A DNA stretch of 64,000 nucleotides, from assembly GCF_016026235.1 (NCBI RefSeq), contig NZ_CP065613.1; one strand, 5' to 3'. Positions 1 to 54,539 of the stretch are shown here, in pieces; position 1 is the first letter of the stretch, and the number at the start of each line of letters is the position of its first letter. The translations under genes were made by a program, and so were the position numbers. Below the pieces are notes generated by a model. The model had not been told where the DNA came from. It made no database searches and saw only the letters and a program-made list of their open reading frames with translations. The DNA comes from Escherichia coli. Lineage in GTDB: Bacteria > Pseudomonadota > Gammaproteobacteria > Enterobacterales > Enterobacteriaceae.

Positions 1-394
1 GAGGCATGATAAGCACTCCAGTCAATGAGTATCACAACACGAGACATTCCCCGCGTAATCTTTTGGGTAATTCGCTGAAAAATGGTGGAAACCTCATTTT
101 GCAAATGTCGATTCCCCAACAGTCGATCCACCCGCTTTATTTTGTTTTTAACTGATGCCGTACCGGTTAAATGACGCCCGATACTGGTAAGTGTGAGGGA
201 AGCGCCATTTATTACAGCATTAGTTGCGTCAATCAGTGATTTTTGACGGTAAAGATGCAAAGGGGCCAGTATGTTGTTAAGGAAATTTTGGCATAATGAA
301 CGTGCAGGCATAGTGGTGATCTCCTTGAAATTGTTAGCACAATCAATTAGATCACATCTCACTATGCCTGTCTTGTTTTCTGGGGATTCCTCAG
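1..394 (-). mobile_element. Partial copy (left end, first 394 bp) of an IS4-family IS10-like insertion sequence, running off the window start
   Basis: Bases 1-394 are the exact reverse complement of 35604-35997. Terminal inverted repeat TTTTCTGGGGATTCCTCAG at 376-394. Transposase start codon would be at 309-311 on the minus strand (partial CDS 1..311). Confidence 0.85.
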
Positions 395-452
395 GGGAAT
401 TCTCCGATCCCGGCTAGATTGTATTTTGTACAGGGAAATTAAAGTATGAAAC

Positions 453-478
453 GCGGGCACAGTTATCACCAGCCCGCG
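453..478 (-). terminator. GC-rich stem-loop downstream of uidR (possible terminator/attenuator)
   Basis: Inverted repeat CGCGGGC-N12-GCCCGCG immediately 3' of the uidR stop on the minus strand; weak U-tract. Confidence 0.35.
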
Positions 479-489
479 AAATGAGAGGA

Positions 490-1080
490 TCAGGATGCGG
501 TTAAGATACCGCCAATCATCGCGCGTAATCCCTGAGCAAACGACGCTTCACGCGCCAGATCTTCCGCTTCGATATCGGCCAGTACACCGTAGGTCAGATC
601 CAGCAGTAAACGTGAAGTCATTGACGTGTTGATGTCTGGGCTTATCTCGCCTTTTTGCTGGGCATCACGCATCCGCTCGGCAACAAATTCAGTGATCGTC
701 ATATGCTTATTTTTAAGCATGGCGGCGACCTGTGGGTTACGCATCCCTTCCGCCATAATTTCGACCACCAGCGCCCGTTGCCCAAAGGCTTCATGGGTGA
801 GAGAGACAATAGACTCGACCATATAGTCAACAAAATGAATCCCTTCAATCGGTTCCCGGAAACGGGCCAGCGCCCTCTCCTGGTCCTGTAAGATAATCGC
901 CTGAATCAAGGCTTCTTTGGAGATGAAATGGTGATAGAGCGTCCCGGGACTAATGGCGCAGGATTTACAGATGGCTTTCATCGAGGCACTGTGAAATCCA
1001 TTTTCTGAAAAAATCTCTCTGGCAGCATTGAGGATCCGGGTCCGTGTCGGTTGTGCTTCAGTCTGCATGTTATCCATCAT
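490..1080 (-). CDS. uidR: TetR-family repressor of the beta-glucuronidase (gus/uid) operon
   Basis: 196-aa ORF with N-terminal TetR-type HTH; sequence recognised as E. coli UidR/GusR; K-12 neighbourhood (hdhA, malI follow). Confidence 0.9.
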   Translation of the reverse strand: MMDNMQTEAQPTRTRILNAAREIFSENGFHSASMKAICKSCAISPGTLYHHFISKEALIQAIILQDQERALARFREPIEGIHFVDYMVESIVSLTHEAFGQRALVVEIMAEGMRNPQVAAMLKNKHMTITEFVAERMRDAQQKGEISPDINTSMTSRLLLDLTYGVLADIEAEDLAREASFAQGLRAMIGGILTAS

Positions 1081-10386: not shown

Positions 10387-13275
<2,889 letters not shown>

Positions 13276-14334
13276 ATGGTATTCAGAATAGCTAGCTCCC
13301 CTTATACCCATAACCAGCGCCAGACATCGCGCATTATGCTGTTGGTGTTGCTCGCAGCCGTGCCAGGAATCGCAGCGCAACTGTGGGTTTTTGGTTGGGG
13401 TACTCTCGTTCAGATCCTGTTGGCATCGGTTAGTGCTCTGTTAGCCGAAGCTCTCGTACTCAAACTACGCAAACAGTCGGTAGCCGCCACGTTGAAAGAT
13501 AACTCAGCATTGCTGACAGGCTTATTGCTGGCGGTAAGTATTCCCCCCCTCGCGCCATGGTGGATGGTCGTGCTGGGTACGGTGTTTGCGGTGATTATCG
13601 CTAAACAGTTGTATGGCGGTCTGGGACAAAACCCGTTTAATCCGGCAATGATTGGTTATGTGGTCTTACTGATCTCCTTCCCGGTGCAGATGACCAGCTG
13701 GTTACCGCCACATGAAATTGCGGTCAACATCCCTGGTTTTATCGACGCCATACAGGTTATTTTCAGCGGGCATACCGCCAGTGGTGGTGATATGAACACA
13801 CTACGCTTAGGTATTGATGGCATTAGTCAGGCGACACCGCTGGATACATTTAAAACCTCTGTCCGTGCCGGTCATTCGGTTGAACAGATTATGCAATATC
13901 CGATCTACAGCGGTATTCTGGCGGGCGCTGGTTGGCAATGGGTAAATCTCGCCTGGCTGGCTGGCGGCGTATGGTTGCTATGGCAGAAAGCGATTCGCTG
14001 GCATATTCCCCTCGGCTTCTTAGTAACGCTGGCGTTATGCGCAACGTTGGGCTGGTTGTTCTCACCAGAAACACTGGCAGCACCGCAAATTCATCTGCTG
14101 TCTGGAGCGACCATGCTCGGCGCATTCTTTATTTTGACTGACCCGGTTACCGCTTCTACGACCAATCGTGGTCGTCTTATTTTCGGCGCGCTGGCGGGCT
14201 TATTGGTCTGGTTGATCCGCAGTTTCGGCGGCTATCCTGACGGCGTGGCTTTTGCCGTCCTGCTGGCGAACATCACGGTTCCTCTGATCGATTACTACAC
14301 GCGTCCGCGCGTCTACGGCCATCGCAAAGGGTAA
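13276..14334 (+). CDS. rsxD: Rsx/Rnf complex subunit D
   Basis: 352 aa integral membrane protein; start abuts rsxC stop. Confidence 0.95.
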
Positions 14335-51556: not shown

Positions 51557-51863
51557 GATTTATTCCTTTGCTGCATCTGTGTGCCTTTATTGCTACCTAA
51601 GTGTAAAGGCTACGGAGGATTTATCCACGACAGATTTGAGATGGTGGCAAACAACTCTGTTTAAACTCTGATACACGAATTATTGGGTTGTATCAGATGT
51701 AAATGCGATCCTGAATAAAAATCGCCCTTGCAAATCAACAAAATATAGCCAATTTGCTTAAAAGCTCTGCAAACGGTCGAAATAGCGCAGAAAATTACGT
51801 TTTGCCTCTTGCCACCTTCCCACTCTGCCGCTAATATTCGTCCCCGTTGTCACCTACAACGTT

Positions 51864-51940
51864 GCGTTCATAGCTCAGTTGGTTAGAGCACCACCTTGAC
51901 ATGGTGGGGGTCGTTGGTTCGAGTCCAATTGAACGCACCA
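51864..51940 (+). tRNA. valV: tRNA-Val (anticodon GAC)
   Basis: 77 nt; acceptor stem GCGTTCA/TGAACGC, anticodon loop TTGACAT, T-loop GGTTCGAGTCC, encoded CCA. Confidence 0.95.
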
Positions 51941-51944
51941 TCCT

Positions 51945-52021
51945 GCGTCCGTAGCTCAGTTGGTTAGAGCACCACCTTGACATGGTGGGGGTCGGTGGTT
52001 CGAGTCCACTCGGACGCACCA
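51945..52021 (+). tRNA. valW: tRNA-Val (anticodon GAC)
   Basis: 77 nt; near-identical to valV with compensatory changes in the acceptor and T stems; 4 bp after valV; encoded CCA. Confidence 0.95.
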
Positions 52022-53771: not shown

Positions 53772-53786
53772 GGTAATGACTCCAAC

Positions 53787-54290
53787 TTACTGATAGTGTT
53801 TTATGTTCAGATAATGCCCGATGACCTTGTCATGCAGCTCCACCGATTTTGAGAACGACAGTGACTTCCGTCCCAGCCTTGCCAGATGTTGTCTCAGATT
53901 CAGATTATGTCGCTCAATGCGCTGAGTGTAACGCTTGCTGATAACGTGCAGCTTTCCCTTCAGGCGTGATTCATACAGCGGCCAGCCATCCGTCATCCAT
54001 ACCACGACCTCAAAGGCCGACAGCAGGCTCAGAAGACGCTCCAGTGTGGCCAGAGTGCGTTCACCGAAGACGTGCGCCACAACCGTCCTCCGTATCCTGT
54101 CATACGCGTAAAACAGCCAGCGCTGACGTGATTTAGCACCGACGTAGCCCCACTGTTCGTCCATTTCAGCGCAGACAATCACATCACTGCCCGGTTGTAT
54201 GCGCGAGGTTACCGACTGCGGCCTGAGTTTTTTAAGTGACGTAAAACCGTGTTGAGGCCAACGCCCATAATGCGTGCACTGGCGCGACAT
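53787..54290 (-). CDS. insB: IS1 InsB (expressed as InsAB' transposase by -1 frameshift)
   Basis: 167-aa ORF recognised as IS1 InsB. Confidence 0.9.
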
Positions 54291-54484
54291 CCGACGCCAT
54301 TCATGGCCATATCAATGATTTTCTGGTGCGTACCGGGCTGAGAGGCGGTGTAAGTGAACTGTAGTTGCCATGTTTTACGGCAATGAGAGCAGAGATAGCG
54401 CTGATGTCCGGCAGTGCTTTTGCCGTTACGCACCACGCCTTCAGTAGCGGAGCAGGAAGGACATCTGATGGAAATGGAAGCCAC
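54209..54484 (-). CDS. insA: IS1 InsA (transposition inhibitor/regulator)
   Basis: 91-aa ORF recognised as IS1 InsA (zinc-finger CPSCSA...CSHC). Confidence 0.9.
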
Positions 54485-54539
54485 GCAAGCACCTTAAAAT
54501 CACCATCATACACTAAATCAGTAAGTTGGCAGCATTACC

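Follow-up and report, generated by a model that had tools for sequence, protein, structure and literature searches.

The uidR locus and the copy at the window edge

The window, by which we mean the whole 64-kb stretch of Escherichia coli DNA analyzed here, opens with the left-end portion of an insertion sequence, followed by one copy of its target, a terminator-like hairpin, and the uidR (gusR) gene, whose protein is identical in thousands of assemblies according to an exact-protein look-up (Table 1). A further copy, of full length, lies within lhr. A repeat search of the entire window returned a single inverted pair with arms at 1-395 and 35603-35997 that are 100% complementary; the pairing of base 395 is a chance match of the flanks, and the element proper stops at 394 and at 35604. 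Reverse-complemented, bases 1-394 match the first 394 bp of the lhr element exactly, as a first-pass annotation of this DNA had claimed, and since an exact identity over 394 nt is unreachable by chance, the homology of the two copies is real. The terminal inverted repeat described at the end of the element was likewise found, as was its distance of 95 nt (395-489) from the uidR stop codon at 490-492. The portion at the window edge comprises the left inverted repeat (IRL), the 5' leader, and transposase codons 1-103, with the ATG at 311-309 and leftward reading; one end of the element and one target copy are visible. Over these 394 bp, the sequence is identical to that of the RefSeq-annotated ISEc60 copies in the genomes RMDEC364 (L001), FDAARGOS_943 (L002), and RMDEC332 (L003).

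Table 1. Features of the window that bear on the two ISEc60 copies (positions within the window).
Feature	Position	Strand	Details
ISEc60 left-end portion, clipped by window edge	1..394	-	Exact reverse complement of 35604-35997
Long stable hairpin over transposase ribosome-binding site and ATG	304..374	+	-34.3 kcal/mol, z = -7.5
Terminal inverted repeat IRL, 19 bp	376..394	.	Element strand CTGAGGAATCCCCAGAAAA; 18/19 match to IRR CTGAGGGATCCCCAGAAAA
One copy of 10-bp target GGGAATTCTC	395..404	.	Doubled around the element in RMDEC364, RMDEC332, and L027
uidR terminator-like hairpin	452..478	-	CGCGGGC-N13-GCCCGCG, then T-rich run; -17.1 kcal/mol, z = -3.4
uidR (gusR), intact, 196 aa	490..1080	-	ORF listing; RefSeq annotation of the homologous locus
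Full ISEc60 in lhr, 1,294 bp	35604..36897	+	10-bp duplication GGGCGCACTC at 35594-35603 and 36898-36907
In-frame TGA (R239*) in transposase of lhr copy	36401..36403	+	AGA in reference ISEc60 copies, sole difference

With just 394 bp in view and the element cut by the window edge, one might think of a solo end or remnant, or of an assembly artefact at a repeat, rather than of a part of a full copy. We regard this as highly improbable. A 401-bp query across the uidR-element junction (window 250-650) was recovered in 3 of 5,426 complete E. coli genomes (RMDEC364, RMDEC332, and FDAARGOS_943), and all four other genomes with the uidR junction carry the full 1,294-bp element. The passage from uidR into the element recurs in a separately made short-read assembly of the clone (L060), whose flank is 100% identical, and the contig of the window is a 4.56-Mb long-read assembly. 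Look-ups aimed at the junctions returned little: A 48-aa ORF across the uidR-element junction had no record in the protein look-up, no ORF spans the far junction of the element, and scanning the species-representative genomes for the exact pattern gave no match to the far-side stretch.

Identity of the element and its relation to IS10

RefSeq lists the element as 'IS4-like element ISEc60 family transposase' (WP_001111632.1). A full ISEc60 measures 1,294 bp, has 19-bp terminal inverted repeats, and encodes an intact transposase of 396 aa. The intact transposase allele, whose N-terminal 103 codons are identical to those of the window copy, scored 360.5 bits against NF033591 (NCBIfam, IS4 family transposase; cut-off 152), covering profile positions 1-339 of 340. 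Compared to the IS10A and ISVsa5 transposases taken from plasmid records, it showed 36% identity over 93% of its length, and its catalytic residues D97, D160, and E289, together with Y282-R285-E289-K296 [Y-(2)-R-(3)-E-(6)-K], aligned with the IS10A transposase; of the catalytic residues, only D97 falls within the gene part visible at window 1-311. The profile score, the DDE triad with its YREK signature, and the short inverted repeats with a fixed 10-bp duplication all place the element in the IS4 family. By the ISfinder convention, isoforms share >95% DNA identity. Taking the RefSeq-labeled ISEc60 copies as reference, we found 100% identity for the visible 394 bp and a match at 1,293 of 1,294 bases for the lhr copy, in which the one difference is the private stop R239*.

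The likeness to IS10, which the first-pass annotation had put into its label, concerns the architecture. The ends of ISEc60 share the terminal sequence CTGA-NNN-ATCCCC with IS10, and at each end, 12 of the 13 outermost nucleotides agree with an IS10A-family copy (CP139951.1). Both elements show the same asymmetry, with GAATCCCC at the transposase-start end and the Dam-site-bearing GGATCCCC at the other; in ISEc60, a predicted Dam site (GATC) lies in the right inverted repeat (IRR, CTGAGGGATCCCC) at the transposase-stop end, while IRL (CTGAGGAATCCCC) holds none. Both have a single transposase ORF of ~400 aa with D97, D160/161, E289/292, and the YREK motif, as well as a symmetric target consensus with hot spots. 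On the other hand, the transposases are only 36% identical, well short of an IS10 isoform, and the element lengths differ (1,294 bp versus 1,329 bp for IS10). The targets differ as well, G-N8-C plus flanking G/C in ISEc60 versus the IS10 consensus NGCTNAGCN. Where IS10 duplicates 9 bp, ten bases are repeated at every intact ISEc60 site; if the conserved flanking C and G are counted into the element, the duplication becomes 8 bp, and on neither count is it 9 bp. The description as IS10-like therefore stands for the build of the element (ends, GATC asymmetry, and DDE/YREK residues) and fails for its identity. As judged from its sequence, the element is ISEc60, a distant relative of IS10 and a separate, already catalogued insertion sequence.

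A further resemblance is the long hairpin over the translation start, which sits where IS10 has its RNA-OUT/RNA-IN pairing region. The Rfam RNA-OUT model (RF00240) matched the antisense strand over its full length but, with 16.8 bits, fell below its gathering score of 41, and generic or miRNA-type hairpin models scored equally. No promoter consensus was found there. As the score is not specific, we rejected a claim of RNA-OUT homology from Rfam alone, and the hairpin stands as a candidate.

A recurrent target between uidR and uidA

In IS-free genomes, uidR and uidA are separated by 388 bp, and this spacer contains the target decamer GGGAATTCTC once. RMDEC364 and RMDEC332 share the junction of the window and carry a complete element at this site, with a perfect duplication of the decamer and an intact uidA-uidB-uidC beyond it, which bears out the first-pass proposal that the insertion site lies within the uidR-uidA spacer. 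In another genome (L027, GCA_031665585.1), the same decamer is duplicated, with the element in the opposite orientation. Across eleven sites with intact duplications, we obtained the symmetric consensus (C)G|G-N8-C|C(G) and a duplication of 10 bp. A symmetric target preference is known for IS10 and other IS4-family elements.

We built a neighbor-joining tree from 6.6 kb of flanking DNA of 27 genomes, in which the IS-bearing genomes formed three distinct clades, and the nearest neighbor of each was IS-free. The first clade holds the window, L060, L061, and FDAARGOS_943 (nearest IS-free genome L053, divergence 0.45%), the second RMDEC364 (L026, 0.03%), and the third RMDEC332 with L027 (L019, 0.24%). 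The assembly GCA_017060135.1 is an IS-free near-twin of RMDEC364. Hence, the same 10 bp were struck at least three times. The quasi-palindromic decamer is a hot spot for ISEc60: Three E. coli lineages that are unrelated to one another have it occupied, and the element is found there in either orientation.

Within the third clade, ISEc60 stands in opposite orientations in RMDEC332 (L003, 10852-12145) and L027 (9918-11211), with flanks that are 99.99% identical on both sides and with the same 10-bp duplication. This flip could reflect independent insertions into the hot spot, loss of the element by excision and its renewed insertion, or a misoriented element in one assembly. The assembly GCA_031665585.1 also holds a direct tandem of ISEc60 (L028, 9918-12515), an IS dimer in which a 10-bp spacer GGGATTTACC is one base off the outer duplication GGGATTTTCC.

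ISEc60 is rare, being present in 16 of 5,426 complete E. coli genomes, and in the literature it is almost absent, with passing mentions only. Plasmids of ~290 kb (NZ_CP011417.1 and others) in CFSAN029787, RMDEC364, RMDEC332, and VL46 carry three to four copies each, which suggests that ISEc60 spread into these lineages via plasmids. The same uidR-side insertion is already annotated in RefSeq genomes, and its finding here is known and ordinary.

Consequences for beta-glucuronidase control

Operators of GusR have reportedly been mapped in a PNAS paper of 2018. Read from uidR, the spacer consists of the stop codon, the GC-rich hairpin, the decamer (GAGAATTCCC in this direction) 85 nt past the stop, and then 293 bp up to the uidA ATG, and the terminator-like hairpin accordingly sits between the uidR stop and the insertion point. 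Candidate operator dyads lie 237-222, 76-62, and 60-47 nt before the uidA ATG, all of them on the uidA side together with the promoter-proximal region. Operators O1 and O2 of GusR have been described as upstream of the gusA promoter (PMC9881133). By its position, the insertion would interrupt neither transcription unit and none of the candidate uidA control dyads. UidR is a diffusible repressor that acts in trans. As the element sits between transcription units that were already separate and UidR is diffusible, we infer from this anatomy that the insertion is probably close to neutral for beta-glucuronidase regulation, with inducible control essentially intact.

The first-pass annotation had instead supposed that the insertion might alter uidA expression, through loss of an upstream site, through a block to read-through from uidR into uidA, or through outward or read-through transcription supplied by the element. 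The insertion does fall in a regulatory spacer, and in the unrearranged arrangement of RMDEC364 and RMDEC332 the transposase gene is directed toward uidA. IS10-type elements are known to have an outward promoter, pOUT, which is located at the IS10 end corresponding to IRL. In ISEc60, however, that end faces uidR, away from uidA, and our promoter scan found no sigma-70-like promoter in the IRL region; at the IRR end, it found no strong outward promoter, only matches at the level expected by chance. The hairpin already parts uidR from the insertion site, and 293 bp with all dyad symmetries remain attached to uidA. Taken together with the trans action of UidR, this makes a change in expression unlikely. 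There may be a UidR, UxuR, or CRP site upstream of -293 relative to the uidA ATG, and basal uidA expression could shift slightly through an outward promoter or through transcription continuing out of the transposase gene, but near-neutrality is the reading that we favor.

Shared descent and the far side of the copy

FDAARGOS_943 is by far the closest complete relative of the window: Their flanks are 99.9% identical (5 mismatches in 9 kb), compared to 98.5-98.8% for other genomes. Over 50 kb, they run collinear apart from three structural differences, namely the lhr insertion, which only the window has, an extra 96-bp repeat unit in rsxC, and an IS1 in ydhS. As the uidR-side copy is common to both and lies in collinear DNA, it is shared by descent; the lhr copy postdates the split. 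The rsxC difference belongs to an array of 96-bp tandem repeats (window 12517-13284) with one unit more than in FDAARGOS_943, at which short-read contigs of the same clone break (L061). The IS1 (768 bp, window 53772-54539), absent from FDAARGOS_943, is flanked by a duplication of ~9 bp (GTGAAGCGG). At 51863-52021, the window has two tandem tRNA genes, 92% identical and with anticodon GAC, whose FDAARGOS_943 homologues are annotated as tRNA-Val. The same clone was found via the rare MalY allele of the window, among the matches listed as short-read contigs that end at the IS; the HdhA allele proved too common across assemblies in the exact-protein look-up.

FDAARGOS_943 holds 34 copies of ISEc60. 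Its uidR-side copy has non-matching flanks, with AGGCATTCCC on the ompG side and ompG-ycjW beyond, and the reciprocal junction, uidC::IS1-uidB-uidA / ISEc60 / IS1 / ycjV, is found 255 kb away. This amounts to an inversion of ~255 kb between inverted ISEc60 copies at ycjV/ompG and uidA/uidR (L002 and L047; record 1,107,410-1,363,200). The inverted segment takes in tus-fumC-manA, close to the replication terminus. In the same genome, uidC is split by IS1.

Whether uidA still follows the window-edge copy depends on whether the window's genome underwent such an event too. If so, ompG-ycjW or other DNA would lie beyond the copy and uidABC far off beside another one, leaving uidR and uidA physically uncoupled yet functionally linked through the diffusible UidR. 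FDAARGOS_943, the closest complete relative, has exactly this arrangement; at least one other ISEc60 copy in the window's genome has non-matching flanks (L022); and the positions of lhr, cysJIH, and glk on the window's contig are not collinear with K-12. Against this, intact duplications flank six of seven ISEc60 copies observed in the window's genome, and look-ups of the YcjW, UidA, and truncated UidC proteins of FDAARGOS_943 returned no second genome with the rearranged neighborhoods, a weak argument given that the alleles may differ. We therefore treat a recombinant copy as a serious but less favored option, and lean toward the simple state, in which uidA still lies beyond the window-edge copy.

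The two copies in the window (1-394 and 35604-36897) are inverted relative to one another, point inward with their IRL ends, and bracket 35.2 kb of core genes that extend from uidR into the 5' portion of lhr. Formally, such a pair would resemble a composite transposon of the Tn10 kind and could serve as an inversion substrate, while relatives show the bracketed stretch in collinear order. We rejected an inversion of these 35 kb, given that lhr is collinear across its insertion and the duplication there is perfect. The locus bears comparison with the IS-mediated inversions of Shigella and enteroinvasive E. coli: The window's genome has many identical IS copies and disrupted motA, lhr, and ydhS genes, and FDAARGOS_943 shows an inversion between inverted copies at the uidR locus. 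It differs in that the demonstrated inversion belongs to FDAARGOS_943, whereas the 35-kb segment between the copies of the window is uninverted.

The lhr copy and its stop allele

None of the 5,426 complete E. coli genomes searched, the collinear FDAARGOS_943 among them, has the lhr insertion. Its in-frame TGA lies before the catalytic E289, as placed by alignment with the IS10A transposase. As R239* removes this residue, the lhr copy would be nonautonomous and could not have been moved by its own product; either a transposase acting in trans brought it there, or the change arose once the copy was in place. This bears on the first-pass proposal that the identity of the two copies indicates recent transposition. 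In its favor, the lhr copy is absent from a relative that is 99.9% identical; against it, the transposase of the lhr copy is dead, and the uidR-side copy is older, being shared with FDAARGOS_943. What is supported is recent activity of the element family, given identical copies and an lhr insertion that close relatives do not all share.

Upstream of the stop, the lhr frame runs through IRL into the transposase gene (window 33221-36403), yielding a 1,060-aa fusion ORF of Lhr(1-794), a linker, and transposase(1-238). This Lhr'-'transposase fusion was found in one assembly only, GCA_900449985.1 (contig UGFA01000002.1, on which the window starts at ~887,200). The remaining 3' part of lhr forms a separate ORF of 728 aa (36955-39141).

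The 238-aa truncated product occurs at five more sites of GCA_900449985.1 and nowhere else in the protein index. Besides those in lhr and motA, the R239* copies (window; L020-L024) comprise two around glk/nupC, one near cysJIH/queD, and one within an island close to an AIDA autotransporter. At least one intact ISEc60 copy is present in this assembly alongside the six R239* copies. By contrast, none of the 94 ISEc60 places in complete E. coli genomes has the T allele that creates the stop. A sister assembly, GCA_031665325.1, reads AGA at three shared sites, although the flanks differ by one SNP in ~18 kb. These nearly identical flanks exclude independent mutation as the source of the six TGA copies. 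The remaining options for the origin of the stop allele are gene conversion in the strain of the window, a trans-mobilized mutant copy combined with short-read polishing that homogenized the sister assembly, or an error in either assembly. A more elaborate scenario can be read from the sequences, in which the stop allele would have spread by rapid gene conversion among dispersed copies, with the 238-aa product acting as a dominant-negative inhibitor, alongside a strict hot spot and an in-place flip of the element. We consider this scenario improbable. If it were true and both assemblies were right, the product would keep the N-terminal, end-binding part of the transposase without the catalytic glutamate and thereby tame the element.

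Proposed history and implications

We propose the following history for the window-edge copy. An ISEc60 copy would have entered the decamer of the uidR-uidA spacer by cut-and-paste transposition, at a sequence that fits the symmetric preference G|G-N8-C|C with its 10-bp duplication and that was struck independently in at least three lineages. The copy would then have been inherited from the common ancestor of the window's strain and FDAARGOS_943. Its arrival would merely have parted two already independent transcription units, and the main consequence would be structural, as one of many identical copies that offer a substrate for homologous recombination, as demonstrated in FDAARGOS_943. Taken as a whole, the explanation that an ordinary ISEc60 copy, of a previously catalogued kind and at a favored target between uidR and uidA, supplies bases 1-394 as its IRL-proximal third appears very likely to be correct.

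By itself, the finding matters little, as it adds one more catalogued IS copy to an E. coli genome that is rich in IS elements and resembles Shigella or EIEC. Of greater interest are the hot spot, the flip between sister strains, the stop allele in several copies, and the inversion in FDAARGOS_943, each of which nevertheless varies a familiar theme of IS biology. Identification of such strains via uidA, whether by MUG or by PCR, is probably unaffected by the insertion itself. The decamer is a recurrent landing site of ISEc60, and its occupancy is thus unreliable as a marker of shared descent. Within this lineage, furthermore, large inversions around the replication terminus have a proven breakpoint in the uidR-side copy, a point relevant to genome assemblies and to synteny-based typing.
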